A DNA stretch of 38,668 nt from Patescibacteria group bacterium (GTDB lineage: Bacteria; Patescibacteriota; Patescibacteriia; 2-12-FULL-60-25). Under the pieces are notes generated by a model. The model was not told the DNA's origin. It worked only from the letters and a program-made list of their open reading frames with translations, and ran no database searches. The DNA is taken from positions 1-38,668 of the forward strand of contig JAZDIB010000016.1 of assembly GCA_043805355.1 (NCBI GenBank), read 5' to 3'. This document shows positions 6,724-29,937 of this stretch, in pieces. The position numbers were made by a program, and so were the translations under genes. The first letter of the stretch is position 1. Each line of letters starts with the position of its first letter.

Positions 6724-6805
6724 GCAAAATCCATGTAACACGGAAACGTGGCTGGATGCAAGGATATGCACGGCCTCGCGGTCATCGAGAGTATCGTGCC
6801 AAACG

Positions 6806-10284: not shown

Positions 10285-10288
10285 AACA

Positions 10289-10936: not shown

Positions 10937-10986
10937 ACGAAAAAATATCGAGGAATGATGCGCTGCTGGATGCTAGTAAACCAGCA

Positions 10987-11736: not shown

Positions 11737-11743
11737 ATCCGCA

Positions 11744-12361: not shown

Positions 12362-12363
12362 GT

Positions 12364-13112: not shown

Positions 13113-14240
13113 TCAAGCCAGGATGCCCCGGAGCGTCGAGATGACGGTCTGCTGGTCCTCCTCGCTCAACGTCGGGAAGATCGGAAGCGAGATCTCCGCC
13201 TCGGAAAACGCCTCGGCCTTCGGACAGGCGCCGACGGCATCTCCACGTCCCGCGTAGTACGGAAGCCGATGCACGGGGATGTAGTGGACCTGCACGCCGA
13301 TGCCCGCGTCGCGAAGTTTCGCGAACGCTTCGGCCCGGCGGCCGGCCCATGCGCCCCGGAGGCGGATCGGATAGATATGCCATCCGCAGCGGACGTCCTC
13401 GAGCTCCTGCGGGAGCTCGATTGACGGATGATCCGCGAACGCCTCGCGATACCGGGCGGCGATGGCGCGACGTGCCTCGATGAATCGCTCGAGCTTCTTC
13501 AGCTGCGAGGTCCCGAGTGCACATTGGAAGTCAGTGAGCCGCCCGTTCACGCCGAGCGCCTGCATCTCGTAATACCACGCGCCGGGCGAGGGGGTCCCCA
13601 GATGTTCCTTTGTGATGCCGTGGTTGCGGAACAGCCTCAAGCGTTCGGCATGTCCGGGGTCGTCCGTCGTGACGGCTCCGCCCTCCCCTGTCGTGATCGG
13701 CTTCACCGGATGGAAACTGAAGGCCGTCAGGTCCGCGATGGAACCGACCTTCCTCCCGTGGATCGCGGCACCGAGCGCATGGCACCCATCCTCGATGACG
13801 ATGAGCCCGTGGGCCTTCGCGATCTCCATGATGCGCAACATGTCCGCAGGATGTCCGGCATAGTCCACCGGGACGATGGCCTTCGTACGCGGCGTGATGG
13901 CAGCCTCGATCAGGTCCGGATCGATATTGCTGGTGCGCGGATCGACATCCACGAACACGGGCGTCGCCCCGAACCAGACGCCGGCATTGGACGTGGCCGC
14001 GAACGTGATGGGCGTGGTGATGAACTCGTCGCCATCCTTCAATCCCGCGACGAAGAACGACGCCATGAGAGCTACCATGCCGTTCGAGAAAGCGACGGCA
14101 TGCTTCGCGCCGACGGCATCCGCCAAGGCGCGCTCGAACGATTCGACCGCCGGCCCCTGCGTCAGCCAGTCGGATTTCAAGACACGGACGACCGCTTCCA
14201 CGTCATCGTCCTCGATAGTCTGCCGACCGTACGGGATCAT
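13113..14240 (-). CDS. pseC: UDP-4-amino-4,6-dideoxy-N-acetyl-beta-L-altrosamine transaminase-like DegT-family aminotransferase
   Basis: ATG at 14240 (MIPYGRQTIEDDDV), in an ATGA overlap with the pseB stop. FSFHPVKPITTGEGGAV carries the PLP lysine. WHIYPIRL and VHYIPVHRLPYY follow. Confidence 0.85.
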   Translation of the reverse strand: MIPYGRQTIEDDDVEAVVRVLKSDWLTQGPAVESFERALADAVGAKHAVAFSNGMVALMASFFVAGLKDGDEFITTPITFAATSNAGVWFGATPVFVDVDPRTSNIDPDLIEAAITPRTKAIVPVDYAGHPADMLRIMEIAKAHGLIVIEDGCHALGAAIHGRKVGSIADLTAFSFHPVKPITTGEGGAVTTDDPGHAERLRLFRNHGITKEHLGTPSPGAWYYEMQALGVNGRLTDFQCALGTSQLKKLERFIEARRAIAARYREAFADHPSIELPQELEDVRCGWHIYPIRLRGAWAGRRAEAFAKLRDAGIGVQVHYIPVHRLPYYAGRGDAVGACPKAEAFSEAEISLPIFPTLSEEDQQTVISTLRGILA

Positions 14241-15226
14241 AGCGAGGCGAGAAGGTCCTTCAGGCCCTGTTCGTCCAGCCATTGCGGATTCGCCTCGCTG
14301 CCGTATGACGCCCCCTCGGGGAACCCCTTACCTTCCGCATATCGCGGCGCCAGCCCCTCATCGAAGACAAACTCGGGAAGTATGACGAAGTGCCCGTCGA
14401 ATTCCTTCGCTCGGCGGGCCTCCTCCGGCGTGACGAGGACCTCATGGAGCTTCTCGCCAGGACGGATGCCGATGACCTTCATCGCGCATTCCGGCGCCAA
14501 TGTGTGCAGGAGATCCTTCACGCGCATGCTCGGGATCTTCGGGATGAAGATTTCCCCGCCATGCATCGACTCGAGCGCGCGCATCACGAGCGCGACACCT
14601 TGGTCGAGCGTGATCCAGAAGCGCGTCATCTCCTCGTGCGTCAGTGTGACGACGCCGGTCTTCCGCTGTTCCTCGACGAGTTTCAGCAGGCTCCCCCGGC
14701 TGCCGAGGACGTTTCCGTACCGGACCGCGGACAGCTTCGTGCGTCCGCTCGAATACGAATTTCCGCTCACGATGAGCTTTTCCGCGCAGAGCTTGGTCGC
14801 GCCGTACAGGTTCGCGGGGTTGGCCGCCTTGTCCGTGGAGATGAGGAGGACCTTCTGCACCCCTCGATCGATGGCTGCTTCGATGACGTTTTTGGTCCCG
14901 ATGATGTTCGTCTGGATGGCCTCGAACGGGTTATATTCGAGCAACGGTACCTGCTTGAGCGCCGCGGCATGCACGACGAAATCCACGCCTTCGAACGCCC
15001 TCGAGAGACGGGAGGCGTCCCGGACGTCGCCGAGGAAGAACCTCAAGCGCCCGAGATGCTCCGCGAACGTGGATTGCATCTGCGACTGCTTCAGCTCGTC
15101 GCGGCTGAAGACGATGATGCGGCTCGCCGTCGTCTGCTCCAGGAGCGTGCGGACGAAACGCTGGCCGAAGGAGCCGGTTCCGCCGGTCACGAGGATGCTT
15201 TTTCCGTCCAGGAATTCGTAGGTCAT
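14237..15226 (-). CDS. pseB: UDP-N-acetylglucosamine 4,6-dehydratase (inverting), FlaA1/PseB type
   Basis: 329 aa. Motifs ILVTGGTGSFG, SRDELKQ, FFLGDVRD, STDKAANPANLYGATKLCAEK, MTRFWITLD, GGEIFIPKIPSM and IGIRPGEKLHEV. Close motif-by-motif resemblance to Helicobacter FlaA1. Confidence 0.9.
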   Translation of the reverse strand: MTYEFLDGKSILVTGGTGSFGQRFVRTLLEQTTASRIIVFSRDELKQSQMQSTFAEHLGRLRFFLGDVRDASRLSRAFEGVDFVVHAAALKQVPLLEYNPFEAIQTNIIGTKNVIEAAIDRGVQKVLLISTDKAANPANLYGATKLCAEKLIVSGNSYSSGRTKLSAVRYGNVLGSRGSLLKLVEEQRKTGVVTLTHEEMTRFWITLDQGVALVMRALESMHGGEIFIPKIPSMRVKDLLHTLAPECAMKVIGIRPGEKLHEVLVTPEEARRAKEFDGHFVILPEFVFDEGLAPRYAEGKGFPEGASYGSEANPQWLDEQGLKDLLASL

Positions 15227-15284: not shown

Positions 15285-16229
15285 CTAGAGATAATCCGCG
15301 AGTTCTTCGGCGTTTTTCAGCTTCACGATTTCCGGAAACGGGAGGCGACAGCGGGCGGATTCGTCCAGGAAGACGCTGATCGCCCTCTTGCCGCAGATGA
15401 CCACAGCGGCGAGCGCCATGGTCTCGACGCCGACGACGACCGGAGCGGACGCGATATCCTCGCACAGCGTCCTGCCATCCGAAACGCGGATGTCGAGCGA
15501 CGCGCCGGATGCGGCAACGACCGCATCGAATTTCCCGCGCGGCTCGGCCGGGTGGAGGCGGATGATCAGCCGACGGTCCGGGGCATGCCGGACGACGACG
15601 CCGATGACGGCCTCGAGGACCTCGGTCTCCGTGAACGAGATCGGTTCCATGTCGCCGAGCGCGTTGACGCCCGAGTCGATCGGTTCGCTGACGAACAGAA
15701 TCGCCTGTGGATCTTCCGTAATCTTCCGCATCGCCTCCGCGAATTCCTCCTTCATCTCCACGAAGGCCTGGTTCGGGACAAGGCGGACCGTGCGGCCCGA
15801 AAAATCCCTTTGCGCGATCTCGACCGCATGCGAATCCCCGACCCATAGCTCGTCAGGCAGATTCCGTTCCCATCCTTCATGCGGATATAGGAATCGCTCC
15901 CGGTAGTTCACCCAGTGGTCCAGATAGCTGACGGTCGGGATGCCGCGTGCCTTGGCGGCGCGGATGAGGTCGGTCTCGAAGGAAGACGACCAACTCGGAT
16001 TCGCGATGACCATCTCGAGCGGTCCGCACCTCTCGAGGAGCGCCTCCGCGTCGGCATCGTCCGGATACGCCATGAACGGGACTCCTTTCCTCGTGAACGG
16101 CTTGATCGCGGCGCCGGACGCGTGGCAGATCCACGTCTTCTCGTCCCGATGCCGCTTGATGTATGCCGAAACGACGTCCGCGTCGCCCGCGCACCCGCTC
16201 GCGACCAGGACCTTCGGCGCCGGACTCAT
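15285..16229 (-). CDS. Uncharacterised two-Rossmann-domain (GT-B-like) protein; candidate PseG substitute or CMP-ulosonate transferase
   Basis: 314-aa well-formed ORF. The second half shows ILFVSEP...LIIRLHPAEP...VVVGVETMALAAVVICGKRAISVF. This is the same order of elements as the C-terminal half of the KpsS-like protein at 27629-29143. ATGA overlap with the ACP gene upstream. Confidence 0.35.
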   Translation of the reverse strand: MSPAPKVLVASGCAGDADVVSAYIKRHRDEKTWICHASGAAIKPFTRKGVPFMAYPDDADAEALLERCGPLEMVIANPSWSSSFETDLIRAAKARGIPTVSYLDHWVNYRERFLYPHEGWERNLPDELWVGDSHAVEIAQRDFSGRTVRLVPNQAFVEMKEEFAEAMRKITEDPQAILFVSEPIDSGVNALGDMEPISFTETEVLEAVIGVVVRHAPDRRLIIRLHPAEPRGKFDAVVAASGASLDIRVSDGRTLCEDIASAPVVVGVETMALAAVVICGKRAISVFLDESARCRLPFPEIVKLKNAEELADYL

Positions 16230-16483
16230 GCGAGGTGCCGCTCAATCGTCCCGATCAGCCCCCGTATCGTGCCGAAATCCTCATCCTGAAAATCCTCGTT
16301 CGTGAAACGGAAGTCGAATCGCGTTTCGGCGACCGACACGAAGGAGATGAACTTGAAGGAATCGACCCACTTCTCGACGAAATAGTTCACGTCAAGCTGC
16401 CGTTCGAGATCCTCGGAGGAGCGGCCCGTCTCCGTGACGAACCATTGTTTGACGAATTCCGCGACCTGATTCGAGGGGTCCAT
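16226..16483 (-). CDS. Acyl carrier protein (phosphopantetheine-binding, stand-alone)
   Basis: ATG at 16483 inside track ORF 16226-17095. 85 aa and acidic. The motif WVDSFKFISFV places the attachment Ser at residue 42. Confidence 0.75.
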   Translation of the reverse strand: MDPSNQVAEFVKQWFVTETGRSSEDLERQLDVNYFVEKWVDSFKFISFVSVAETRFDFRFTNEDFQDEDFGTIRGLIGTIERHLA

Positions 16484-16488
16484 ATGCG

Positions 16489-17169
16489 TCAGGAAAAAAG
16501 GAAGACGCGCGCGGGCGACCCGTCCGCCCCCCGGATCTTGAGGGGAACCGCGGCGATCGACCATCCTTCGAGCCGAGTCACGTCCTCGAGATTCGCCACG
16601 TACTCGACCATCACGACCCCGGCGCCGAGCAGGAGCTTGTGGATGGGCGAATCCTTGGGACTGCCGAGGTTCTCCCCCCTGAGAACGATGCGGCTGTCGT
16701 CCGGCGAGGGAGTGTCCATCGCGACCAGTTCGATGCCCTGGTCGATGAGATACCGTGCGGCCTCCTCCTCGAGATATGGATACCCCTGATAGAATCGGGG
16801 CGACCCCCAGTGCTTCCCCCATCCGTATTTCAGGAGGACCTTCCTGGTCGTGAGACTCCCCTTCAGCATGCCGGCGGTGACCGAGGCGTTCTCCCCCAAC
16901 CCGGTGAAATCGAGAATCGTCACGGGTCCGAACAGCCGTTCGAGCGGAAGCTCGTGGATCGCCTTCCCGCCGGGGATGAAGTGGAGCGGGGCATCGACGT
17001 GCGTGCCCGAATGCGAACCGAACGTGACTTTCCGTGTTTCCCTCCCTTCCTTGCCGTGCGTACCCATCCGCTCGATGGAGACCGTGGGATGCCATGAAGA
17101 CCCGAAGGTCAGCATGCCTTCGTGGATCTCGTGCGTGAGGTCAATCATCTCGTGGGTTTCGGGCGACAT
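16489..17169 (-). CDS. Cyclase-family metal-dependent hydrolase (kynurenine formamidase fold)
   Basis: 226 aa with the family signature HSGTHVDAPLHF, plus MDTPSPD. Confidence 0.75.
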   Translation of the reverse strand: MSPETHEMIDLTHEIHEGMLTFGSSWHPTVSIERMGTHGKEGRETRKVTFGSHSGTHVDAPLHFIPGGKAIHELPLERLFGPVTILDFTGLGENASVTAGMLKGSLTTRKVLLKYGWGKHWGSPRFYQGYPYLEEEAARYLIDQGIELVAMDTPSPDDSRIVLRGENLGSPKDSPIHKLLLGAGVVMVEYVANLEDVTRLEGWSIAAVPLKIRGADGSPARVFLFS

Positions 17170-18369: not shown

Positions 18370-19139
18370 ACCTTCCGGGTCTGATGGACGACCGAGAAGA
18401 CCTCGGCGATCTCGCCATGGTCCCCGTATGCGAAAAAGACGTCGAGCCCCTTCCCGTCGATGACGACGGACTCGATGGGGGTCACGGAGATGCCGTCGCA
18501 GATCAGTCGTTCGCGCTCATGTCCCGCATCGGTCGCGACGAAGGCGAGGCAGCTGAACCCCGTCACGTCGAGCCGCGGTGCGGTCCCGGCGTCCGCGCGC
18601 GACCGCACCTCGAGCGTACAGACCCGGCCGGCGAACGGGGAATCCCACCGGAGCTCGTTCCCGAGCGTGCCTTCCATCGCCTCCACGAAACCGAAGGACC
18701 GCCAGAATCCGATGGTCCTGGCGGGATCCGACGTGACGGACACCAGTCGGTCGAAGACGAGACGCGCGCGCGGAGCTGTCCCGCGGACCTCGGCCCGGAA
18801 TTCGAGTGGGCCCGCCGAGACCGTCACGTGACCGTCTCCGGTCGTCCCGTCGTCGCGGACCGTCCACTCCGAAGGGATGTCGCCGAAAGACGGCATCAGG
18901 TTCGACTCGCCGGAAGACTCGTCATGATCGTGGATGAGCTCGATGGGGATGCTCGCGTCCGCACCCATCAGGACCAGGTCCTGGGTCGGCGCGCGCCGCG
19001 TCAGGAACGGCTCCTTGATAGCGGGATTCCCGATCCGACGTTCGACGAACCGCGTGACGTAGCCCGCGGATTCGAAAATGCCCGCGTCACGTGTGACGTC
19101 TTCCGAGACGAAGGCGACGTGGTCGATGCCGATAATCAT
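18366..19139 (-). CDS. Two-module VOC-superfamily protein (glyoxalase/dioxygenase/epimerase fold)
   Basis: 257 aa. IGIDHVAFVSEDV opens module 1. FDRLVSVTSDP...GFSCLAFVATD forms module 2. ATGA overlaps at both ends. Confidence 0.6.
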   Translation of the reverse strand: MIIGIDHVAFVSEDVTRDAGIFESAGYVTRFVERRIGNPAIKEPFLTRRAPTQDLVLMGADASIPIELIHDHDESSGESNLMPSFGDIPSEWTVRDDGTTGDGHVTVSAGPLEFRAEVRGTAPRARLVFDRLVSVTSDPARTIGFWRSFGFVEAMEGTLGNELRWDSPFAGRVCTLEVRSRADAGTAPRLDVTGFSCLAFVATDAGHERERLICDGISVTPIESVVIDGKGLDVFFAYGDHGEIAEVFSVVHQTRKV

Positions 19140-20644
19140 GTCTTGCCCGAAGCGTTACCATATAACGCTCTCAAGGCACGCATGTCAATCTTCCCGTTGA
19201 TGTTCCTCGGGACATCGTCCAGACGGAAGAACTCGTCGATGCGGCACGCGGGGCCGAGGCGTTCGACGACGCGTGCGCCGATCGTGCCGAGCGACCGCTC
19301 GGTGAACCGGCCCTCCCGCGGCACGTACATGCAGACGGTCTTCTCGCCGAGGGAGCCGTCAGGGATCCCCAAGACGACCGCGGATTCGATCTCATCGCTG
19401 TCCGCGAGGACGGACTCGATCGACCTCGGACTGATGTTGATCCCTCCGCGGATGATGATGTCCTTCTTCCTCCCCGTGATTGCCAGATGTCCATGCGCGT
19501 CGACCGTCCCGATGTCCCCGGAGTCGAAGGTCTGTCCACGATCGCGATCGCCGTCCGTCTCGTGTCGATATCCCTGGAACATCCATTCCGCCCGGATGCG
19601 GATCTCGTCGTCCGGTCCGAACGTCACCTCGACACCGTCCAACGGCGATCCGACGCCCCCTTCCGCGCATCGGTCCCCTGGGCGTTCGGTCGAAACGAAC
19701 AGCGTCTCCGACAGGCCGTAGCTCTCGTACAGCTCGATGCCGTACCTCTCCATGAACATCTTCTTCGTGCGGGGATCGAGCGGCGCGGTGCCCACGCATC
19801 CCATCACCCGCGCCTGCCGCGCGTAGTCCGCCCCCAGTGTGCCGCGATCGACCTTGAGGAGGATCGACAGGATGGCGGGGATGAACCAGAACGTGTTGAC
19901 GCGATGGCGGATCGGGTCGTCCCAGAACGACAGGGCCGAGGAGATGGAGAACCGGTCGCCGACCACAATCGAGCTCCCCGACAGCAAGGGCATCAGCCAC
20001 AAGTTCAGGATACCCGCCATATAGGTCATCGGCAGGTCGTGGTAGAAGACGTTCCCCTCATCGAACGAGAAGCGTTCCGCGAAACGACGTGCGCTGAGCG
20101 CGAGGTTCCCGAACGAGTGCCTGACGCCTTTCGGGACGCCCGTCGATCCCGACGTGAACGCGATAAGGAACGTCGATGCCGCGTCGACCGTCAGGAGCGC
20201 GTCGACGGACGCGGACGGTCCCCCGCCCGACGTGGGTCCGAGCGGGACGAGGTCGGCCGGATCGATCGTCGTCCGTGCGGCCCCCGCCCGTTCCGGCACA
20301 TCGGTGATGAGAAGCTTCACGTCGATCTGCGAAAGGATACCTTCGACCTCGTCCTTGCCTTTGAGCGGGTCGATCGGCACGACCGTATACCCGCCGAGGA
20401 GCGACGCGAGATACAGGACGAGGAGCCGGACGGAGTTCCCCATTATCAGCACGACGGTCTCTCCCCCGGCCAATCCGTGGGCACGAAGACGGGCAGCGCA
20501 GGAGACCGCCTCGTCGAGATATTCCCGATACGTCCATGAACGGCCGTCATGCGCATCTATGAGGCACGACGCATCCGCATGCGCCCGAAACGCCTCCACG
20601 AGCGCATCGACGCTAGGCTGGACGTTCCTGTTCTCCGCCGACAT
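19136..20644 (-). CDS. Adenylate-forming acyl/aminoacyl ligase (AMP-binding superfamily)
   Basis: Motifs FTSGSTGVPKGV, YGLSET, SGDIG and TGRKKDIIIRGGINISPRSIE. First ATG at 20644 (32-nt overlap with the aldolase gene). The track start at 20686 is a GTG. Confidence 0.9.
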   Translation of the reverse strand: MSAENRNVQPSVDALVEAFRAHADASCLIDAHDGRSWTYREYLDEAVSCAARLRAHGLAGGETVVLIMGNSVRLLVLYLASLLGGYTVVPIDPLKGKDEVEGILSQIDVKLLITDVPERAGAARTTIDPADLVPLGPTSGGGPSASVDALLTVDAASTFLIAFTSGSTGVPKGVRHSFGNLALSARRFAERFSFDEGNVFYHDLPMTYMAGILNLWLMPLLSGSSIVVGDRFSISSALSFWDDPIRHRVNTFWFIPAILSILLKVDRGTLGADYARQARVMGCVGTAPLDPRTKKMFMERYGIELYESYGLSETLFVSTERPGDRCAEGGVGSPLDGVEVTFGPDDEIRIRAEWMFQGYRHETDGDRDRGQTFDSGDIGTVDAHGHLAITGRKKDIIIRGGINISPRSIESVLADSDEIESAVVLGIPDGSLGEKTVCMYVPREGRFTERSLGTIGARVVERLGPACRIDEFFRLDDVPRNINGKIDMRALRALYGNASGKT

Positions 20645-21674
20645 ATCTGTCGAATCCGAATTTCCCGAAATAGATCTCCTCGCCACCCTGCATCCTCTTC
20701 GCGATGTCCTCGAGCTTCGCGACGTCGAGGTTGACCTTGTCGATCTTGCACATCTCGATGATGAGCAGGATGGGGTTGACGTTGAACTTCGCCGCGCATG
20801 CCTGGATGTGCGGCATGTAGCTCGAATGGAATTCGGCGAATCCCGACGTGATGTCGAGCGGCATCCGTCCCCTCACCCTCAACAGGGGCTGGATATAGTC
20901 CTGCCCAATCTCGAAGAGCTTCAGGATGTCGAGGTCCATGTGGTATCCCCGTTTCAGCAGGGCGGCGACGAGGATCTCGGTCACGGCGTTGCCCGCGCTC
21001 CTGCCGAGCCCCTGCAACGACGCGTCGACGAACTGGATACCCATGTCCGCGGCCGCGATGCTGTTCGAGACCGCCAGGCCAAGGTTGTCGTGCGCATGGA
21101 ATCCGACCGGGATATCCGACACCGCCCGGATCGCCTTGAAATACCTCTCGATGTCCTCGGCGAACATCCCTCCGGCCGAATCGACGATGTACACCATGTC
21201 CGCGCCATATCCTTCGGACAGCTTCACGTTCCTCGCGAATTCCTCCGGGGAGACGGCGTAGGATTTCATGTAGTTCGCGGCGACGAACATGCCGTGCCGC
21301 TTCGCCGTCCTGATGAACGGCTCCGATGCGGGAACGTCGGACACGTTCGTCCCGATCCTGACGAAGCCCATCCCGTGGCGTTTCGCGAGATCGAGGTCCT
21401 CCAGCCTGGCGATACCCGGGATGCAGAACATCCCGTATGTCGCCTTCGTAAGGACCTGTTCCGCGGCGATCATATATTCCTCGTCGGACTGGATCGCGCG
21501 TCCGAACCCGGATTCGCTTGCATGTAGGCCGACGCCGTGGCCGATTTCGATATATTCCACGCCGGCGTCCTCGAGCCGGCGGCAGATGAGGCGGACGTCC
21601 GAGGAGGTGAACGAAAAATCGATCTCGTAGCTCCCGTCCCGGATCGTCGTCTCGAGCAATGTGACGGTCTTCAT
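20613..21674 (-). CDS. HMGL-family pyruvate-dependent aldolase with a DmpG-type C-terminal domain (4-hydroxy-2-oxovalerate aldolase-like)
   Basis: ATG at 21674 (MKTVTLLETTIRDGSY). Motifs FHAHDNLGLAVSNS, GLGRSAGNA and a C-terminal GFAEFHSSYMPHIQACAAKF segment. No acetaldehyde dehydrogenase (DmpF) partner is present in the window. Confidence 0.8.
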   Translation of the reverse strand: MKTVTLLETTIRDGSYEIDFSFTSSDVRLICRRLEDAGVEYIEIGHGVGLHASESGFGRAIQSDEEYMIAAEQVLTKATYGMFCIPGIARLEDLDLAKRHGMGFVRIGTNVSDVPASEPFIRTAKRHGMFVAANYMKSYAVSPEEFARNVKLSEGYGADMVYIVDSAGGMFAEDIERYFKAIRAVSDIPVGFHAHDNLGLAVSNSIAAADMGIQFVDASLQGLGRSAGNAVTEILVAALLKRGYHMDLDILKLFEIGQDYIQPLLRVRGRMPLDITSGFAEFHSSYMPHIQACAAKFNVNPILLIIEMCKIDKVNLDVAKLEDIAKRMQGGEEIYFGKFGFDRYVGGEQERPA

Positions 21675-22132
21675 AGGGTCTTGTCGTCGATAAACGCGAC
21701 CGCGATCGCGTAGCCGTCCGCATGGGACAGGCTCAGTTTCAGAAAACAGCGACACGCGTCGTCGAGATGCAGTTCGACCCCGGGAGCGCCGTCCGCATCC
21801 GTCGTGATCGCGATCTTGGCGTATTCGGCCGGGGTGAACCGACGTCCCATCACGGAGCCAAGCGCCTTCATGACGGCCTCCTTCCCTGCATATCGGGCCG
21901 CGAGATGCTGCGCCGGATTCGCCTTCGAGAAGCAGTACGCGATCTCCTCGGACGTGAAGACGCGTTCGATCAGAGAGCTTCGTCTCGCGAGCCCCTTGAA
22001 CCGTCCGATGGATTCGATATCTACCCCGATGGAGGGGAAATCGTGCGGACCTGAAGGACGGGCTTCGCGGCGCGCAGCCTTCCGCTTGGGCGTCTTCGAT
22101 TCAGGACGCCGGCTCTCGGGAAGTCGTTTCAT
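21671..22132 (-). CDS. acpS: Holo-ACP synthase (AcpS-type 4'-phosphopantetheinyl transferase) with a basic N-terminal extension
   Basis: ATG at 22132, in an ATGA overlap with the upstream stop. IGVDIESIGRF and ARYAGKEAVMKALG are present. About 35 K/R/P-rich residues precede the core. Confidence 0.8.
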   Translation of the reverse strand: MKRLPESRRPESKTPKRKAARREARPSGPHDFPSIGVDIESIGRFKGLARRSSLIERVFTSEEIAYCFSKANPAQHLAARYAGKEAVMKALGSVMGRRFTPAEYAKIAITTDADGAPGVELHLDDACRCFLKLSLSHADGYAIAVAFIDDKTL

Positions 22133-22920
22133 TCGGTGACGTAAAAAGGTTCTTTCAGGAAAAAGCACGGATCGGTATCCAGGACCTTCATGCCCTGATC
22201 GAAACAGTCGGTGAAGTCGACCAGCTGGACCGGGGCGCCTGCGAACGTCGATGCCCGGACGAGGCCGAGCGAATCCATGTGCTTCTCGAAACGGGAAAAA
22301 TCGTACGGCTTCGATTTCCGGTTGCGCAGGAACGCGAGGAACGGGCCTTCGACGAGCTTCCCGTCACGATAGACCGGATGGAAGAACGCCTTGTGGTAGC
22401 AATGCGAGACGCCGTAGAGATGCTCGACGTAGTGGAGGAAGCTGCACGTTTCGCCCAACGTGATGCCCAGATAGAGGCACTTCGCCTTCAGGATATGCAG
22501 GCGATGGTACACGGACCCCCATCCGAACAGGGAACGCGAGACGCCGTCGCAGATGTCGTGGCTCTTCGAGCCGATGGCCGTGACCGAACCGATCGGATGG
22601 AAGGAACGGACGGCCCCGGGCATCCGTCGGATATGTTCGGTCAGGATCCCCGCCTCGGAAGGCGTCTCCTCATAGACGAACGGTTCGCCGTAGGTGCTGT
22701 ATCGCGTCGTATACGTGATGACGACGATCGTACCTTCGGGATATCCGACCGCATCGAGCAACGGGTCGAGAAAGATGCGGATGAATTCCTCCTGGTCCGA
22801 AGCGAGCCCCCCGAACCGGAAGAGGCGCGCATGGACGTAGACCGTATCGCCTTTCTGGATACCGATCCGCCCGAGGGTCTCCCTCAATTCCTGCGCGTGC
22901 GCGTTCGTCCCCATAGTCAC
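22129..22920 (-). CDS. AAC(3)-family (Antibiotic_NAT fold) N-acyltransferase
   Basis: 263 aa. GDTVYVHARLFRFGG, GTIVVITYT and RSFHPIGSVTAIG resemble aminoglycoside 3-N-acetyltransferases. The GTG at 22920 gives a GTGA overlap with the DegT stop; an alternative ATG is at 22914. Confidence 0.7.
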   Translation of the reverse strand: MTMGTNAHAQELRETLGRIGIQKGDTVYVHARLFRFGGLASDQEEFIRIFLDPLLDAVGYPEGTIVVITYTTRYSTYGEPFVYEETPSEAGILTEHIRRMPGAVRSFHPIGSVTAIGSKSHDICDGVSRSLFGWGSVYHRLHILKAKCLYLGITLGETCSFLHYVEHLYGVSHCYHKAFFHPVYRDGKLVEGPFLAFLRNRKSKPYDFSRFEKHMDSLGLVRASTFAGAPVQLVDFTDCFDQGMKVLDTDPCFFLKEPFYVTE

Positions 22921-24227
22921 GCGGCGCGGAGTTCGTCCCGATGTCCGTAGACCTTCTCGAAGGCATGGACCACGTCGTCCATATCCTCCTGCGTCGCCGG
23001 AGGCCGCATGAACTCGTTCAGGAAGAGTTCCTTCTCATGCAGCCGCTCGACGACGGGACAGATGCCCTTGGCGTAGGAGACGTTCCCGGGGTGGTACGGC
23101 GAGACGAACGGATACCCGTCCCGTCCGATGGCGATCTTCTTCTGGAACAGCGGCATGAGATACAGCGGCTTCACGTATCCGACGCTGAGCTGCGGCCCCT
23201 CGGCCTCGCGCAGCTCCGTCGGAGGGAGCTCCGCACGGACCGCGTCGATGAACGCGTCGCGCGGCACGCCGACGATGCCCTCGTCGAACAGGAACGGCTG
23301 CATGTAATAGACGTGCGTCGCGCCTTCGCGGACCTTCGGCGCGCGGATCCCGGGGAAGGCGCCAAGCTTCTCCGCGAGATACGTGCAGTTCCGGAGCCGC
23401 GCCTCGACGAGGCCGCTCAGCTTCTTCAATTGCTCGCGTCCGATCGCGGCCTGGATTTCCGTCAGCCGGAAATTCGACCCGAGCATGTTCACGAGGTCGG
23501 TCTCGCCCTTGTCCCCTACGACGGCTTCCGCATGGTTCCGGATGAGGCGGAGCCGTTCCGCCAGACGGTCGTCGTCCGTGACGACCACGCCGCCTTCGCC
23601 CGTATGGATGTGCTTGTGGTAATTCAGCGAATACACGCCCATGTCGCCGAGCGTCCCGGCGTATCGGCCCTTGTACATGGCTCCCGGTGCCTGCGCGCAG
23701 TCCTCGATGACCGTCAGGCCGTGCTCCTTCGCGATTGCATTGATCGCCTCCACGTCGTACGGCTGCCCCATGATATCCACCACGATGATGGCCTTGGTCC
23801 GTGGCGTGATGCGTGCTCGGACGGATTCCGGATCCAGGCAGAACTGCTCCGGTTCGATGTCCGCGAAGACCGGGATGGCCCCGTACCACAACGGCACGGT
23901 CGCGGAGACGGCCATGCTGTACGGCGAGACGATGACCTCGTCGCCCGGACCGATCCCCACGGCGCCGACGGCCGCCTGCAGCCCGGACGTGCAGGAGTTC
24001 ACGGCGATGGCATGCTTCACGCCGAAATGCGCGGCCCACTCCTTCTCGAACGCCTGGACTTCCGGGCCTCCATAGAAATCCTCATGCCAGCAACCGAGAT
24101 ACCGGGACAGGATACCCGAATCGATGACGCGGGAAACGGCGGCCTTCTCCTCTTCCCCGACGACCTTGTAGGCGGGGAACTTCCTCGTGCGGACCGGCTC
24201 TCCGCCATGGATGGCTAATCGCGGCAT
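22917..24227 (-). CDS. Long DegT/DnrJ/EryC1/StrS-family PLP aminotransferase (second sugar or keto-cyclitol aminotransferase)
   Basis: 436 aa. YSLNYHKHIHTGEGGVVVTDD carries the PLP lysine; NFRLTEIQAAIG follows. An N-terminal insertion RYLGCWHEDFYGGPEVQAFE is reminiscent of the glutamine:scyllo-inosose aminotransferase subgroup. Confidence 0.85.
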   Translation of the reverse strand: MPRLAIHGGEPVRTRKFPAYKVVGEEEKAAVSRVIDSGILSRYLGCWHEDFYGGPEVQAFEKEWAAHFGVKHAIAVNSCTSGLQAAVGAVGIGPGDEVIVSPYSMAVSATVPLWYGAIPVFADIEPEQFCLDPESVRARITPRTKAIIVVDIMGQPYDVEAINAIAKEHGLTVIEDCAQAPGAMYKGRYAGTLGDMGVYSLNYHKHIHTGEGGVVVTDDDRLAERLRLIRNHAEAVVGDKGETDLVNMLGSNFRLTEIQAAIGREQLKKLSGLVEARLRNCTYLAEKLGAFPGIRAPKVREGATHVYYMQPFLFDEGIVGVPRDAFIDAVRAELPPTELREAEGPQLSVGYVKPLYLMPLFQKKIAIGRDGYPFVSPYHPGNVSYAKGICPVVERLHEKELFLNEFMRPPATQEDMDDVVHAFEKVYGHRDELRAA

Positions 24228-24228
24228 A

Positions 24229-25203
24229 TCAGCGTGAGGTTACCTGTTCCAACAGCGTATCGCAAACGGCCTGTGTCTCCTCGGCGTCGGCAAGGACGCA
24301 CGCGAGTGGCTCCCCCCGATCGAGATGACGGACCGCGTTGTCGGCCATCCCAAGCATCGCCATGTCCATTCCCGACGCATGCGCCGACGGGTTCCCGAGC
24401 GTCCGGTATGAGGGATACGTCGCGTCGCTCGTCACGGCCTGCTCCTCCAAGCGGAACCCGACGTCCACGAGCCGGAAACGGCGCTTCTCGCAGACGACGT
24501 CGAGCTCGAACATGAACGCGCGACGCGCGTCGCCGATCATGAGATGGAACTCGGGGCACCGGCGGAACGAAAGGACCGCGCTCACGCACGAATCCTCCCG
24601 ATGGAAGTCCACGCGTGAGCCGAGGGCGCAGGCGGACACGACGTCCCCGAACAGGAACCGGGCAAGGTCGATGATGTGCGACCCGTTGTGCCGCAACCCC
24701 TTCACGTAGATCGCGGAGGCGGTCAGCACCTTCCCATATGCGCCGGACCGGAGGCCGTCGCGGAAATCCCGGAGACGAGGCCCGAACCGGTAGGAAAAAT
24801 TCACGAGAAGCGGGATACGCGTATAGGCCTTCGCGACCGTCCGGAGTCCGCGCATATCCGGGGCGACGGGCTTTTCGCAGATGACGAGTCTCGGACGGGC
24901 CTTCGCGACCCGGAGGAGCGTCGCGACGTGATCCGTGTCGGGCGTGCACACGCTCACGATGTCGGGCGCCGTCTCGCGGAGCATGGCGCCGAGGTCCGCA
25001 TACGCCGTGCATCCCCATCGGCGCGCCGCCTTCGCGGCCGCACGCGGATCGATGTCGCAGATGCCGACGAGGTCCGTCTTCGGGTGCCGGAAGAACGCAT
25101 GCGCATGCGTCAGGATCCCTCGGCTGCGCGGCGTATCGTACAACGCGGCGATGCTCCCAGCACCGACGATGGCTGCACGGAACCGCTTATCCTTCTTCGG
25201 CAT
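24229..25203 (-). CDS. Gfo/Idh/MocA-family NAD(P)-dependent oxidoreductase
   Basis: 324 aa with AAIVGAGSIA (Rossmann) and VICEKPVA (EKP motif). Its stop lies 1 nt upstream of the DegT start. Confidence 0.85.
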   Translation of the reverse strand: MPKKDKRFRAAIVGAGSIAALYDTPRSRGILTHAHAFFRHPKTDLVGICDIDPRAAAKAARRWGCTAYADLGAMLRETAPDIVSVCTPDTDHVATLLRVAKARPRLVICEKPVAPDMRGLRTVAKAYTRIPLLVNFSYRFGPRLRDFRDGLRSGAYGKVLTASAIYVKGLRHNGSHIIDLARFLFGDVVSACALGSRVDFHREDSCVSAVLSFRRCPEFHLMIGDARRAFMFELDVVCEKRRFRLVDVGFRLEEQAVTSDATYPSYRTLGNPSAHASGMDMAMLGMADNAVRHLDRGEPLACVLADAEETQAVCDTLLEQVTSR

Positions 25204-25945
25204 GTTTTTGTCTCACGTCCCTATTCATGTCCGCGAGGTCGGGATGTTCCGCCAACAGACGCACGACGTGCGATGCGCCGAAGTCCGGCGTTTCGCCGTG
25301 CAGTCGACCGAACACCTCTCCGATCAACGCATAGTCGTCCGGTTCGTCCAGGGTGACGCGGATGTGCGGGGCATGGCACTCGGGCTCCGCGGTCCAATTG
25401 TACGAACGGTATTCGTCCGGGTGCATGTAGATGTAATAGGAGACGTGCGTGCGGTCGATGGGATCCTGCGTCTTCCGATCCACCTCCGCGAGCACGCGCG
25501 TCGGGAAGACCTGGACCTCGAACCCGAGCGGATACGATTGCGTGAGGCAGTTCGCCGCGTAGTCCACGTCGCGTCCGAAGAATTCCTCGATGCCGCAGTC
25601 CACCACGCGGTGATCCATGAGCGGGCAGTCGCCGGTGATCTCCACGATGAGGTCGGCGGCATGGGCCTGGGCGGCACCGAGGACGCGGCCGAGCACGTCC
25701 TCCTCGCTTCCGCGAAACCATTTCGCCCCTGCACGCTCCGCGGCCTGGACGATCGCGTCATCCGCGGAATTCACGGTCGTCGCCACGACGACATCATCGA
25801 GGTATGCGCTCCGTTTGAGCCGTTCGATGAGCCGTTCCAACGCCGGTGCGCCGCCGAGGGGGAGCAGGACCTTGCCCGGCAAACGCGAAGAGGACATCCG
25901 GGCTTCGATGGTCGCGATGATCCGTTCAGGGCGGTCCGCATGCAT
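25187..25945 (-). CDS. Second SpsF-type cytidylyltransferase (CTP_transf_3 family)
   Basis: 252 aa with IIATIEARMSSSRLPGKVL and ITGDCPLMD. Paralogous to 12364-13110. 17-nt overlap with the oxidoreductase start. Confidence 0.75.
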   Translation of the reverse strand: MHADRPERIIATIEARMSSSRLPGKVLLPLGGAPALERLIERLKRSAYLDDVVVATTVNSADDAIVQAAERAGAKWFRGSEEDVLGRVLGAAQAHAADLIVEITGDCPLMDHRVVDCGIEEFFGRDVDYAANCLTQSYPLGFEVQVFPTRVLAEVDRKTQDPIDRTHVSYYIYMHPDEYRSYNWTAEPECHAPHIRVTLDEPDDYALIGEVFGRLHGETPDFGASHVVRLLAEHPDLADMNRDVRQKHAEEG

Positions 25946-26009: not shown

Positions 26010-27518
26010 TCAGAGGCCCCGTATCGGAATCCGGAGCTCCTTCATGACCGATCGGAACGTCATCCACGGGCCCGCCTTGAGCCGGATGCCCACGGTCCGG
26101 AGCACGGCCAGATACAGGAAGCCGAGGCCACAAAGGTAGGCGAGATCCGCGGGGATGCTATGTAGGGCATGGATCGGGCCGCGGAACGCGACGGCGGCGG
26201 CGACGACGACAATGCTCGCCAGGCCGGTCGACGCGAGAATCGGTACGAACGCGCTCTTGCCGAGCAGGAAGATCGGCCGCGCCTTCCACGCGACGAAGAC
26301 CAGCATGAGGATCCACATGACGACGATCGCGGCCGCAAGGCCGTTCGTCCGATAGGCCCATGCGCCGAGGACCATGAGCGGGATGCCGACGAACGCCTGA
26401 AGGAGATTCAGCTTGAAGTTCAGGTCCGGTCGGCCGAGGGCGGCGAAAATCGGCCGGACGACGCTTACGATGGCGTGGAACATCGCTCCGATGGAAAAGA
26501 TCTTGAGCGGAACGACGAGCGGCAGCCAGCGCTCCCCGAGCAGGATGGACACGAGGCTCCCACCTTCGAGCAGGATGAGGAGACTGTACGGAACCGCGCT
26601 CAACGAGAGCATGTCGAGCGATTTCGAGAACCCCTCGCGCACCTTGCCGATCTGGTCCTGGATCTTGGAGAACGCGGGGAACGCGATCTTGTCGACCAGC
26701 GAGGTGATGGATCCCGCGGCGAGGAGCGAGAAGTCCTTCGCCTTCGCATAGAAGCCGAGCTGGGTCGTGTCGAGCAGCCGGCCGAGTACGAGCTTATCCA
26801 CGTAGTTCAGCGCGTACTCCACGAGTTGCTGCCCATACACCCATTTCCCGTATCCGATGAGCGAGAGCAGGCGCCGAAACCGGAAGGAGACGCGCGGCCA
26901 AGACGGATACAGGACATAGCTGACGCCGACGCCGACGACGTACATGCCCATGTATCCCGCGAACAGCGCCCAGACCGTCGGCGAGACGAACATCGCGTAG
27001 AGGATGGCGACCGCCGAGAACGTCGCCTGCGCCGCGATATCTCGAACGAACAGCGCGCGGAAATTGAGCTCCTTGAACAGGTACGCGACGCGGACGTTCG
27101 CGAGGACCGGCACGAGGATCATGAGCCCCCCAAGCCGGAGGAGGAGCGCGTATGCGGGATCCACGTTGAAGAACGCGGCGACCCATCCGCCCACCCCGAA
27201 CAGCACGAGGGCGATGGCCGCGCTCCGGAGCAAATCGAGCGTCCAAAACGGATCGAGATAGCCCTCGATGTCCTCCTTCTTCTGGATCAGGGCGTTCATG
27301 AGGCCCGACGGCGTCGTGACCTGGCCCAGGAACCCTACGACGATGAGCACGATGGCGATGATCCCGTAGTCCGATGGCATGAGGAAGCGCGCGAGCACGA
27401 AGAACGTTACGAGGTTGATCGTCTTCTGCCCGAGCACGCTCAACATGAACCACTTGCCGCTCGTGACGGACCGGTGGTAGACCCCCTGGTTCCCTTCGTT
27501 GTTCGTCGTTGGTTCCAT
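26010..27518 (-). CDS. Wzx-like oligosaccharide/polysaccharide flippase (MOP superfamily)
   Basis: 502 aa, polytopic with about 12-14 hydrophobic helices. The N-terminus GKWFMLSVLGQKTINLVTFFVLARFL is typical of the polysaccharide biosynthesis protein family. It is the first gene of the long minus-strand block. Confidence 0.75.
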   Translation of the reverse strand: MEPTTNNEGNQGVYHRSVTSGKWFMLSVLGQKTINLVTFFVLARFLMPSDYGIIAIVLIVVGFLGQVTTPSGLMNALIQKKEDIEGYLDPFWTLDLLRSAAIALVLFGVGGWVAAFFNVDPAYALLLRLGGLMILVPVLANVRVAYLFKELNFRALFVRDIAAQATFSAVAILYAMFVSPTVWALFAGYMGMYVVGVGVSYVLYPSWPRVSFRFRRLLSLIGYGKWVYGQQLVEYALNYVDKLVLGRLLDTTQLGFYAKAKDFSLLAAGSITSLVDKIAFPAFSKIQDQIGKVREGFSKSLDMLSLSAVPYSLLILLEGGSLVSILLGERWLPLVVPLKIFSIGAMFHAIVSVVRPIFAALGRPDLNFKLNLLQAFVGIPLMVLGAWAYRTNGLAAAIVVMWILMLVFVAWKARPIFLLGKSAFVPILASTGLASIVVVAAAVAFRGPIHALHSIPADLAYLCGLGFLYLAVLRTVGIRLKAGPWMTFRSVMKELRIPIRGL

Positions 27519-27628: not shown

Positions 27629-29143
27629 ATGAAAGGCTGTTTCCTCCTCCAACGCCAATTCGCCTATGTCGGCCATGCGCTCGCCCGACTCCTGATGGAG
27701 CGCGATGGCGTGAAGGGTTTTTGCGGCTACGTGTACGTGAGGCAGGGGTTCGATTTCCTGACATCGCAGACGGAGGTGCCCTACGGTACGCTCCTGCTCG
27801 ATGAGGAGATCCACGACCGATACAAGGACGAGGTCCTCGACCCGGCGTTCCTCGACAGGCTCGAGAAGGACTATGGCATCCCGAACCTCTGGCCCTATCT
27901 CAAGGTGGACCGCGTCCTCATGTCCAACCAGCTCGTGCGCGAATACCCGTACGACCGTTCGCCGTATACGCACGAGGAGCTGCTCCGCATCCTGCAGGTC
28001 CATGCGAAGGCCGTCATCGGCATGTTGGAGAAAGAGCGCCCGGATTTCCTGATCGGCTCCGTCTTCGGCGGGGTCGGAAGCCTGCTCCTCTACCACATCG
28101 CGGAACGCATGGGGGTCCGCACACTCAACGTGCTCTCGACCTGCATCAGGGACCGCTGGCTCCTGAGCGGCGCCTACGACACCTTCACGTCCGTCGATGC
28201 CCGCATGGCCGCGCCGGACGCGGCGATCGAGTCGTCCTCCGCGTGGACGCAGGCCGGGGCCTTTCTCGAGGAGTTCCGCGCGAAACCCATCCCCTACTTC
28301 AAGAACTCCACCCCCGAACACCAATCCGTGACGCGACGCCGTCAATTCAGGTTCCTCCTGCCGAAGAACATCCTCCGCTCGATTTCGTCGTACGTCGGCG
28401 AGGTGCGGCGGCACCTGGGCGGACGCGAGCGGTCGGACTACGACACGATCGGTCCGTGGAACTCCCTGAGGGACCGCCTCATGCGCAAGGCGCGGAACCT
28501 CATCGGCGCCGACGACCTCTACGACGAGGTCGTCCCCGGTGAGGAGTTCGCGTTTTTCCCGCTGCACTATGAGCCGGAGGTCTCGCTCCTCTTGCAGGCG
28601 CCGTTCACGACGGACCAAATCCACCTCATCAAGCAGATTGCGCGGTCGCTCCCGGTCCGGATGAAGCTGTACGTGAAGGAACACCCGGTCATGGCCGAAT
28701 ACCGGCCTCGGTCCTACTACAAGGAGCTGAAGAAGATCCATAACGTGAAGCTGATCCGTCCGACGGTGTCGAGCTACACGCTCATCCCGGACGCGAAGCT
28801 CGTGCTCACCATCACGGGGACGGTCGGCTGGGAAGCGATCCTGCTCAAGAAGCCGGTCATCATGTTCGGCCGCTGGTTCTACAGCACACTCCCGTTCGTG
28901 AAGCGGTGCACGGAGATGGAACGCCTCCCGTCGCTGGTGAAGGAGCAGCTCAAAGGGTTCCGGCATGACGAACGGGAGCTTAGGCGGTTCCTCGCGTACA
29001 TCTTCGAGGATTCCGCGGAGATCGACCTGAGCCGCATCTGGAACGAGGAACGCGATCCCGAGAGGAAGAAAGCCTCCCTCGCGCCCTTCGCCGACCTGCT
29101 GGCCAAGACGCTCGGGCTCACGTACCATTCATCGGACCTATGA
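27629..29143 (+). CDS. Capsule_synth (KpsS/KpsC-like) family protein, candidate CMP-ulosonate-dependent glycosyltransferase
   Basis: ATG at 27629 inside track ORF 27509-29143. The C-terminal half has FFPLHYEPEVSLL, KLYVKEHPV (HP motif) and LTITGTVGWEAILLKKPVIMFG, as in capsule polysaccharide biosynthesis proteins. Confidence 0.5.
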   Translation: MKGCFLLQRQFAYVGHALARLLMERDGVKGFCGYVYVRQGFDFLTSQTEVPYGTLLLDEEIHDRYKDEVLDPAFLDRLEKDYGIPNLWPYLKVDRVLMSNQLVREYPYDRSPYTHEELLRILQVHAKAVIGMLEKERPDFLIGSVFGGVGSLLLYHIAERMGVRTLNVLSTCIRDRWLLSGAYDTFTSVDARMAAPDAAIESSSAWTQAGAFLEEFRAKPIPYFKNSTPEHQSVTRRRQFRFLLPKNILRSISSYVGEVRRHLGGRERSDYDTIGPWNSLRDRLMRKARNLIGADDLYDEVVPGEEFAFFPLHYEPEVSLLLQAPFTTDQIHLIKQIARSLPVRMKLYVKEHPVMAEYRPRSYYKELKKIHNVKLIRPTVSSYTLIPDAKLVLTITGTVGWEAILLKKPVIMFGRWFYSTLPFVKRCTEMERLPSLVKEQLKGFRHDERELRRFLAYIFEDSAEIDLSRIWNEERDPERKKASLAPFADLLAKTLGLTYHSSDL

Positions 29144-29937
29144 ACATCGGCATCATCGGCCTCGGCGTCGTCGGAAGCGCCGTGAAGAACGGCTTCGAGA
29201 AGATTGGGCACTCCGTGTCCGTCTTCGATACGAAATACCCGGATTCTACCCTCGCGGACGTGCTCGGGACGGAGGTCTGCTTCCTCACCCTCCCGACCCC
29301 TCCGCGCGAGGACGGCTCCTGCGACATTTCCATCGTGGAACGGACGCTCCGCGACCTCGAGGCGAACGGATATGGAGGCCTCGCGGTCATCAAATCAACG
29401 GTCGAACCGGGAACCACGGACCGCCTCTCCAAGGAACTCAAGATCTCGCTCGCGTTCTGCCCTGAGTTCCTGCGGGAACGCGCCGCCTACACGGACTTCG
29501 CCGAGAACCACGACGTGCTCGTCATCGGGGCGTACTCGGACGAGCACCATGGTTTGATCCGGGAGACCCACGGGTCCCTGCCGAAGAACGTGTTCCTGAT
29601 GACGCCGCTCGAGGCGGAACTCGCGAAGTACTTCTCGAACGTGTACAACGCGCTGCGCATCACGTTCGCGAACGAATTCTACGAGGTCTGCACGGCGCTC
29701 GGGGCGGACTACGGCCGGATCAAGCACGCAATGGTGCACCGCCAGAACATCGAGGACGCCTACCTCGACTGCAACGAGAACTTCCGCGGGTTCGGCGGCG
29801 TCTGTCTGCCGAAAGATACGAAGGCACTCGCGGCGCTCGTCCGGAAGCTCGGGCTCGACCTCAAGCTTTTCGAGACCATCGTGGAAGAAAACGATAAATT
29901 CAAGCGCACGGTCCCGAAGGGCATGCGCGACGTATGA
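29140..29937 (+). CDS. Short UDP-glucose/GDP-mannose dehydrogenase-family protein lacking the C-terminal domain (paralog 2)
   Basis: 265 aa with MNIGIIGLGVVGSAV, CPEFLRE and GFGGVCLPKDT (catalytic Cys). Only about 35 residues follow the Cys motif. ATGA overlaps at both ends. Confidence 0.8.
   Translation: MNIGIIGLGVVGSAVKNGFEKIGHSVSVFDTKYPDSTLADVLGTEVCFLTLPTPPREDGSCDISIVERTLRDLEANGYGGLAVIKSTVEPGTTDRLSKELKISLAFCPEFLRERAAYTDFAENHDVLVIGAYSDEHHGLIRETHGSLPKNVFLMTPLEAELAKYFSNVYNALRITFANEFYEVCTALGADYGRIKHAMVHRQNIEDAYLDCNENFRGFGGVCLPKDTKALAALVRKLGLDLKLFETIVEENDKFKRTVPKGMRDV

Follow-up and report, generated by a model that had tools for sequence, protein, structure and literature searches.

A Patescibacteria protein with the fold of aminoglycoside acetyltransferases is a candidate acyl carrier protein-dependent N-acyltransferase of a pseudaminic acid operon

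We analyzed a 38,668-nucleotide stretch of DNA (referred to here as the window) from an uncultured, small-genome Patescibacteria group bacterium (GTDB lineage Bacteria; Patescibacteriota; Patescibacteriia; 2-12-FULL-60-25; assembly GCA_043805355.1; contig JAZDIB010000016.1, positions 1 to 38,668), with a focus on an open reading frame (ORF) at 22129-22920 on the minus strand. The encoded protein, for which we use the shorthand NAT, has the fold of the aminoglycoside 3-N-acetyltransferases [AAC(3)s]. Judging from its sequence and genomic context, NAT is probably an N-acyltransferase that takes its acyl group from an acyl carrier protein (ACP) and acts on a sugar amine of a pseudaminic acid surface glycan, and we regard it as a functionally new variant of the Antibiotic_NAT fold. 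Our confidence in this reading is moderate because a strong genomic association is set against the uniform use of acetyl coenzyme A (acetyl-CoA) by the characterized members of the family. In a literature search, no paper was found in which PF02522 or AAC(3)-like proteins were connected to nonulosonic acids or to N-acylation from an ACP.

The ORF is real, and its GC content at third codon positions (0.79) is in line with the codon-position GC pattern seen in neighboring genes. It runs from a GTG at 22920, with a probable start at the ATG at 22914 (261 amino acids [aa]); the homologues are likewise 261 aa long and begin at the residue encoded by this ATG. An earlier note on this DNA had described start/stop coupling of NAT to both neighboring genes, and such coupling is present. 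Downstream, the NAT stop codon (22129-22131) overlaps the ATG (22130-22132) of a gene for an AcpS-type phosphopantetheinyl transferase as ATGA. Upstream, the stop codon (22917-22919) of a gene for a DegT-family aminotransferase either overlaps the GTG start as GTGA or, because the homologues start at the ATG, sits 2 nucleotides (nt) before that codon.

NAT matched the Antibiotic_NAT family (PF02522) over 230 of the 232 profile positions (Pfam; E value, 9.8e-30; 104.3 bits against a cut-off of 25 bits). An AlphaFold2 model built on 18 orthologues had a mean pLDDT of 91.7 and was aligned by Foldseek (probability, 1.00; TM score, 0.74 to 0.79; 19 to 24% identity) with AAC(3)-Xa, -IVa, -IIIb, and -VIa, BA2930, YokD, and FrbF; the PDB matches were 7lap, 6mn3, 6mb6, 3kzl, 2nyg, and 3sma. 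These results bear out the AAC(3)-type fold that the earlier note had recognized. The motif of this fold is TxΦHΦAE, and FrbF, YokD, and BA2930 are members without aminoglycoside activity (PMC8956665). In AAC-VIa, Thr186 stabilizes the oxyanion, and the His189/Glu192 dyad activates the attacking amine (PMC5884680). Residues S158-F-L-H161-Y-V-E164 of NAT aligned with T186/H189/E192 of AAC-VIa, and an RSFHP motif is present at residues 103 to 107 (261-aa numbering). The catalytic motif is intact. The catalytic His was kept in 173 and the Glu in 175 of the 181 aligned rows.

The evidence for a carrier-bound donor comes from the genomic surroundings of close relatives. The close NAT subfamily is rare (28 proteins in a word-based search; 3 of the 401 genomes sampled from the phylum of the window) and occurs in metagenome-assembled genomes (MAGs) labeled Uhrbacteria, Saccharibacteria, Paceibacterota, Kaiserbacteria, Omnitrophota, and Gammaproteobacteria. 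We compared the window with 20 related loci (6 from genomes and 14 from metagenomes, several of them representing the same organism twice) by tblastn and Pfam. In every locus with enough context, NAT lies in a nonulosonic acid cluster (i.e., PseB, a NeuB-type synthase, a cytidylyltransferase, and a GT-B-fold protein) with a carrier-protein cassette adjoining it, so the position in a glycan operon pointed out in the earlier note is shared by the window and these loci. A loader, either an AMP-forming ligase or an FkbH-like protein, stands beside NAT and the ACP in all of them.

Three types of cassette were distinguished. The window and loci L001 and L002 carry AcpS, an aldolase, an AMP-ligase, a conserved 257-aa protein, a cyclase, and the ACP. 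The second type consists of an FkbH-like HAD protein, an ACP, and a MaoC dehydratase (L003 [the same as L024/L025], L004 [the same as L028], L006, L020, L021, L022, and L026), with AcpS and/or a short-chain dehydrogenase/reductase (SDR) also present where the contig reaches far enough. The third type (L005, the same as L029) comprises only an AMP-ligase, an ACP, and NAT, with overlapping stops and starts. NAT and the ACP are thus an invariant pair, whereas the ACP can be charged by different chemistries, and no other protein with an acyltransferase fold is conserved in the related loci. In a subfamily tree computed with a careful model, the three aldolase-type loci formed one subclade (97% support), and a single change of cassette type suffices for the ten labeled rows; therefore, the cassette appears to have been swapped once under a retained transferase.

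Some of these loci have further features. Locus L005, which has neither PseB nor NeuB, continues directly after the AMP-ligase, ACP, and NAT genes with a cytidylyltransferase and a B12-binding radical SAM enzyme (L005:3436-5706), an arrangement that recalls the tailoring of CMP-linked phosphonates (Fom3/FrbF-like logic). Upstream of the FkbH-NAT cassette of L004 (L004:2273-7198) are a two-domain thiamine pyrophosphate (TPP) enzyme (401 aa), an Fe-alcohol dehydrogenase, a CDP-alcohol phosphatidyltransferase, and a Glyphos_transf protein, which from their families look like a phosphonate or teichoic-type decoration module.

Domain fusions in the wider clade link the same functions. They were read from the 150 best representatives (many longer than 350 aa) using Pfam and an ACP hidden Markov model (HMM) built from the loci; a search for longer proteins found no fused forms within the close NAT subfamily. 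ACP (PP-binding)-NAT fusions were found in P0094, P0090 (E value, 2e-20), and P0120 (E value, 1e-8), and MaoC-NAT fusions in P0066 and P0031, the latter from the word-based search. Two proteins of about 900 aa (P0057 and P0059) combine an AMP-binding domain, a linker of ~150 aa with a weak ACP-like signal, and NAT. Such an adenylation-carrier-NAT protein has, by analogy, the logic of a nonribosomal peptide synthetase (NRPS) module with NAT in place of the condensation domain. P0056 joins NAT to a DUF4910/M28-like domain, a helix-turn-helix domain, and an ACPS phosphopantetheinyl transferase, and P0063 joins NAT to a methyltransferase. The fusions are spread over several branches of a 176-row clade (described below), on both sides of the subfamily of the window. 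The suggestion in the earlier note that the donor might be acyl-ACP is thus supported in silico, both by these ACP, adenylation, MaoC, and phosphopantetheinyl transferase fusions in relatives and by the ACP cassette that always stands beside the orthologues, whatever it builds. As a separate observation, fusion of NAT to a DUF4910/DUF2172/M28-like aminopeptidase domain (P0056 and P0070) is a recurrent architecture.

NAT is well separated from the resistance enzymes. It scored below the NCBIfam cut-offs of AAC_3 (77.3 versus 270 bits) and of AAC(3)-II, -IV, -VI, and -VIII (45 versus 560, 45 versus 480, 39 versus 420, and 31 versus 675 bits, respectively). A search of 72,556 plasmids gave 24 to 27% identity to the clinical AAC(3)-IVa, -IId, -IIe, and -VIa. 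With an orthologue HMM, AAC(3)s scored 41 to 54 bits, compared with 157 to 443 bits for the 150 best representatives from 1.84 billion proteins. In a FastTree phylogeny of 180 rows, 176 fell into one clade that was split from AAC(3)-IVa, -IId, and -VIa (branch length, 0.51; local support, 99%). The earlier note had proposed placing NAT in a phylogeny against characterized AAC(3)s; it does not cluster with the clinical determinants, and the biosynthetic rather than resistance role argued there agrees with the failed cut-offs, the low identity, and the separate clade. On the same grounds, we rejected the identification of NAT as an aminoglycoside resistance enzyme. The expectation that automated pipelines would mislabel the gene held in part: NCBI names one orthologue "aminoglycoside N(3)-acetyltransferase," but curated antimicrobial resistance models would not call NAT. 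Outside the 176-row clade, a haloarchaeal "AAC(3) family" gene that is 34% identical to NAT (L009:8956-9756; Natrononativus amylolyticus megaplasmid) neighbors sulfatases, Gfo/Idh/MocA, DegT, and a PIG-L deacetylase, which is another nonresistance context of the fold.

The two groups also differ in net charge and at several residues. Net charges are -4 to -10 for three AAC(3)s, which fits their polycationic substrates, compared with -3 for NAT and a clade median of 0; the ACPs have net charges of -3 to -9. Lys175 is present in 99% of the clade and is replaced by Val, Val, and Arg in AAC(3)-IId, -VIa, and -IVa, respectively, whereas Arg197, present in 92% of the clade, corresponds to a gap, Ser, and Ser. 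The comparison of CoA contacts covered Arg48, Thr186, His189, and Glu192 of AAC-VIa. Arg48 is the only side chain reported to move upon CoA binding (PMC5884680). Its position holds Arg, Arg, and Lys in the three AAC(3)s, Phe in NAT, and Phe, Leu, Ser, or Gly in the clade.

About forty ORFs of the window were scanned with Pfam and NCBIfam, revealing a single long glycan operon on the minus strand (the operon genes listed below are on this strand); no mobile element was found near NAT. Upstream of NAT, the operon encodes a Wzx flippase (26010-27518), the first of two CTP_transf_3 cytidylyltransferases (25187-25945; not a PseF equivalog), a Gfo/Idh/MocA oxidoreductase (24229-25203), and the long (436-aa) DegT-family aminotransferase, here called DegT436 (22917-24227; PF01041; E value, 2e-88), with which the oxidoreductase co-occurs. 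Downstream follow the AcpS-type phosphopantetheinyl transferase (21671-22132; PF01648 ACPS; E value, 2.5e-18), a DmpG-type 4-hydroxy-2-oxovalerate aldolase (HMGL-like; 20613-21755, with a probable start near 21674), an AMP-forming ligase that is the presumed ACP loader (19136-20686), and the conserved 257-aa protein, which has no family match and belongs to the aldolase-type cassette of L001 and L002 (18366-19139). Next are a class I/II aminotransferase that is present in L002 and not in L001 (17176-18369), a PF04199 cyclase/formamidase-fold hydrolase (16489-17169), and a stand-alone 85-aa ACP (16226-16483) with a DSF attachment motif, a weak likeness to DltC/AmcB, and a net charge of -8. A 314-aa GT-B-fold protein (15285-16229), which adjoins NAT in many loci, completes this part of the operon.

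The remainder of the operon provides the pathway. PseB (14237-15226; TIGR03589; 446 bits versus a cut-off of 408), PseC (13113-14282; TIGR03588; 473 versus 423.5 bits), and the pseudaminic acid synthase PseI (8061-9122; TIGR03586; 452 versus 340 bits) exceeded their equivalog cut-offs, and we therefore regard the pseudaminic acid pathway as genuine. The second CTP_transf_3 cytidylyltransferase (12364-13110) occupies the PseF position. It is followed by an acetamidino-forming set with a methyltransferase (9133-12394), i.e., a HisH-like protein (11744-12394), a WbuZ/HisF-like protein (10987-11757), the methyltransferase (10289-10936), and WbuX (9133-10284). Apart from NAT, the window has one possible N-acyl(formyl)transferase, a 168-aa Fmt-like formyltransferase N-domain (7552-8058). 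Its ORF shares ~150 nt with a 298-aa ORF without a family match (6806-7702), and the two could be a frameshifted or two-part formyltransferase-like gene. Elsewhere in the window, two short UDP-glucose/GDP-mannose dehydrogenase paralogues (5878-6816, 312 aa; 29140-29937, 265 aa) contain only the N-terminal and central domains, each with an SDR beside it.

Neither PseH nor PseG was recognizable in the operon. The PseH model (TIGR03585, a GNAT family) had no match at an E value of ≤0.01 in the whole 986-kb, 94%-complete genome, compared with matches in 14 of 14 control genomes. The statement in the earlier note that the window has no left-handed beta-helix (LbH) or GNAT acyltransferase held for the 40-odd ORFs scanned with Pfam, with two qualifications: the Fmt-like domain mentioned above and a NeuD/PglD-like protein on another contig (C28:2994-3302; 77 bits), which is the only LbH acyltransferase in the genome. 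The fold of NAT differs from that of PseH; thus, any PseH-like role of NAT would be by analogy only. For PseG, the 314-aa protein is a candidate substitute. Its model has a GT-B fold, and the best matches (UDP-sugar 2-epimerases, including hydrolyzing NeuC, and a polysialyltransferase) are generic, with TM scores of about 0.6. Its homologue in a gammaproteobacterial MAG is fused to PseB in one 706-aa ORF (L002:6655-8775), and this predicted Rosetta-stone fusion ties the GT-B protein to the UDP-sugar part of the pathway. The modeled fold fits a role as a PseG substitute.

From the observed fold, motif, gene order, conservation, fusions, and phylogeny, we infer a donor, an acceptor, and an acyl group as follows. 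AcpS would convert the ACP (16226-16483) to its holo form. The DmpG-type aldolase and the class I aminotransferase, together with accessory enzymes, would build a short hydroxy or amino acid, probably of the C5 4-hydroxy-2-oxo- or 2-amino-pentanoate type, which the AMP-ligase would load onto the holo-ACP as a thioester. NAT is assigned as the transferase because an ACP-bound acyl group needs one and NAT is the sole acyltransferase fold conserved across cassette types. The groove in which AAC(3)s bind the pantetheine of CoA would here receive the phosphopantetheine arm. His161, polarized by Glu164, would then deprotonate the sugar amine for attack on the thioester, with Ser158 stabilizing the oxyanion, and the reaction would yield an amino sugar of the pseudaminic acid pathway that carries an N-acyl group. 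For the sister loci, we expect FkbH, MaoC, and SDR proteins to make a group of the glyceryl or lactyl type, which their NAT would pass on in the same way.

The acceptor amine may come from either of two sources. NAT may fill the PseH step on UDP-4-amino-4,6-dideoxy-L-AltNAc, the product of PseB and PseC, to give a 7-N-acyl pseudaminic acid, whose 5-N-acetyl group would then be turned into acetamidino by WbuX, HisH, and WbuZ. This option fits because PseH was not found in the genome and NAT often adjoins the GT-B protein and PseB. Alternatively, the amine may be formed by the adjacent Gfo/Idh/MocA and DegT436 pair. DegT436 is translationally coupled to NAT in the window, L001, and L018; its orthologues (57 to 76% identity) occur in most NAT loci or genomes, and a cytidylyltransferase always precedes it. 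In most loci, NAT is accompanied by DegT436, Gfo, and the GT-B protein, and likewise by PseB and NeuB. No DegT was found in the genome of L004, whose completeness was not established, and the orthologue in L002 (L002:5174-5917), directly before an intact NAT, is only 247 aa long (the N-terminal half), reflecting either a real truncation or an artifact of MAG assembly. The closest solved relative of DegT436 over its full length is Fic25 (8gyh/8gyj; 231 bits), followed by perosamine synthase, 2-deoxy-scyllo-inosose aminotransferases, and Kdo8N transaminase. The substrate that Fic25 aminates is not a nucleotide sugar but a keto acid carried by an amino-group carrier protein (PMC11726168). Judging from these relatives and neighbors, the substrate of DegT436 could be a nucleotide sugar, a CMP-ulosonate, or a tethered chain, and we consider the PseH-step amine an equally good acceptor for NAT as the DegT product.

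Several observations weigh against an acyl-ACP-dependent sugar N-acyltransferase. Every characterized Antibiotic_NAT enzyme (the AAC(3)s and FrbF) uses acetyl-CoA (PMC8956665). Adjacency or fusion to an ACP would be equally expected if NAT acetylated an amine on an ACP-bound intermediate. DegT436 resembles Fic25, and the amine formed beside NAT may therefore not be a sugar amine; more generally, the evidence at hand leaves the PseC product and the Gfo/DegT436 product as two acceptor candidates. The PseH step could be filled by the formyltransferase-like gene of the window (7552-8058) or by the LbH gene on the other contig. A dyad residue is lost in some orthologues, with Leu in place of His in L005 (2638-3426) and Gly in place of Glu in L003 (1185-1961), P0021, and P0024. 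Finally, the differences in charge and at Lys175, Arg197, and Arg48 hint at an ACP donor and are suggestive only, with a low-identity alignment underneath.

Acetyl-CoA could be used by NAT in two ways. NAT might be an ordinary sugar N-acetyltransferase that replaces PseH (or WbpD-like enzymes), with the ACP cassette merely co-located in the glycan island. The presence of PseB, PseC, and PseI without a detected PseH, the unchanged catalytic motif, and the precedent of FrbF, which acetylates a CMP-linked amine in biosynthesis (PMC8956665), are in line with this explanation. We nonetheless judge it unlikely, given that the ACP cassette stays with NAT through three cassette types and several phyla, that fusions to ACP, adenylation, MaoC, and phosphopantetheinyl transferase domains exist, that the NAT phylogeny tracks cassette type, and that no transferase would remain for the acyl group on the ACP. 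Alternatively, NAT might acetylate, from acetyl-CoA, the amine of an acyl chain tethered to the ACP (formed, e.g., by the class I aminotransferase or by Gfo and DegT436), and another enzyme would move the chain to the sugar. N-Acetyl-aminoacyl groups on nonulosonic acids are known chemistry, which counts for this scheme, as do the carrier-bound substrate of Fic25 and the ACP-NAT fusions, which would be just as suitable for a tethered substrate. It is also favored by the fact that all characterized family members use acetyl-CoA (PMC8956665). However, the FkbH, MaoC, and SDR cassettes build glyceryl- or lactyl-type chains that have no amine of their own, no second conserved acyltransferase is available to release the chain, and the minimal AMP-ligase-ACP-NAT operon (L005) and the adenylation-linker-NAT fusions would have no release step. 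Because of these FkbH cassettes and the lack of another conserved release enzyme, we rank acetylation of a tethered chain below direct transfer by NAT and hold it to be quite improbable.

That NAT is an aminoglycoside 3-N-acetyltransferase serving resistance or self-protection is very improbable indeed. The PF02522 match and the NCBI name of an orthologue speak for it; against it stand the score of 77 bits versus the 270-bit AAC_3 cut-off, the 24 to 27% identity and separate clade, the less acidic character of NAT relative to AAC(3)s, and its translational coupling within a glycan operon that is conserved and lacks a neighboring mobile element. Moreover, those members of the fold that are not AACs and have been characterized structurally do not act on aminoglycosides (PMC8956665). 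Transfer from acyl-ACP to a sugar amine thus remains the reading that we favor.

We also considered a broader reading, which we put forward tentatively as possible and no better than that: the sister clade of AAC(3)s as a whole (at least 176 tree rows; 533 representative clusters at an E value of <1e-30) would consist of carrier-protein-dependent amide synthases that attach custom acyl groups to nonulosonic acids and other surface glycans. By analogy with the adenylation-linker-NAT and ACP-NAT fusions, its members may be free-standing functional equivalents of NRPS condensation domains. If this is true, it is the acetyl-CoA-using aminoglycoside acetyltransferases that would be the exception within the fold.

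Many different N-acyl groups of pseudaminic and legionaminic acids are known chemically, including glyceroyl, hydroxybutyryl, and alanyl groups; to our knowledge, the enzymes that install them are largely not known. If our assignment of NAT is correct, this missing N-acylation step would be carried out by a transferase with the AAC(3) fold that is fed by a carrier protein, and the fold, thought to use only acetyl-CoA, would gain a new type of donor. Hundreds of clusters named "aminoglycoside N(3)-acetyltransferase" would then be relabeled, with consequences for resistome surveys, above all those of uncultured bacteria with small genomes. The modular exchange of donor cassettes around a constant transferase would also be a way in which surface-glycan diversity can arise.

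Among known systems, AAC(3)s (e.g., -IVa, -IId, and -VIa) share with NAT the fold (TM score, 0.74 to 0.79), the T/S-x-Φ-H-Φ-A/V-E motif, and the RSxHP motif, but they are only 19 to 27% identical to it and form a separate clade. They are found on mobile elements, whereas NAT lies in a glycan operon; they never need a carrier protein, whereas one accompanies NAT, which is also less acidic and has no equivalent of AAC-VIa Arg48. FrbF of the FR-900098 phosphonate pathway (PDB 3sma) shares the Antibiotic_NAT fold and serves, as we propose for NAT, in biosynthesis; its substrate is a cytidylylated (CMP-linked) amine, and it is inactive on aminoglycosides (PMC8956665). The window shows a parallel in the cytidylyltransferases that adjoin its amine-forming genes; in contrast to the proposal for NAT, FrbF uses acetyl-CoA and has no carrier-protein partner, and its score on the NAT subfamily profile (60 bits) brings it no nearer than the AAC(3)s. 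PseH occupies the pathway position for which NAT is a candidate, with an unrelated fold and with acetyl-CoA, rather than the proposed acyl-ACP, as the donor.

LpxD and other acyl-ACP-dependent N-acyltransferases of amino sugars move an ACP-borne acyl group to the amine of a nucleotide-linked amino sugar and have a left-handed beta-helix fold. In the tetronate (RfbK-O) module of Vibrio cholerae O1, which serves the N-acylation of perosamine, an ACP and an AMP-ligase are encoded in the O-antigen locus. The window has in common with these systems the proposed type of reaction and the presence of an ACP and an AMP-ligase in a glycan locus, whereas the left-handed beta-helix fold of the LpxD-type enzymes is not present among its scanned proteins. 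The sister loci, which carry a free-standing FkbH-like protein, an ACP, MaoC, and an SDR beside NAT, recall the FkbH-ACP-DH-KR modules that provide lactate or glycerate starters in trans-AT polyketide synthases. In contrast to those modules, the window has a route by aldolase, aminotransferase, and AMP-ligase, and the chain would go to an amine via NAT rather than to a ketosynthase.

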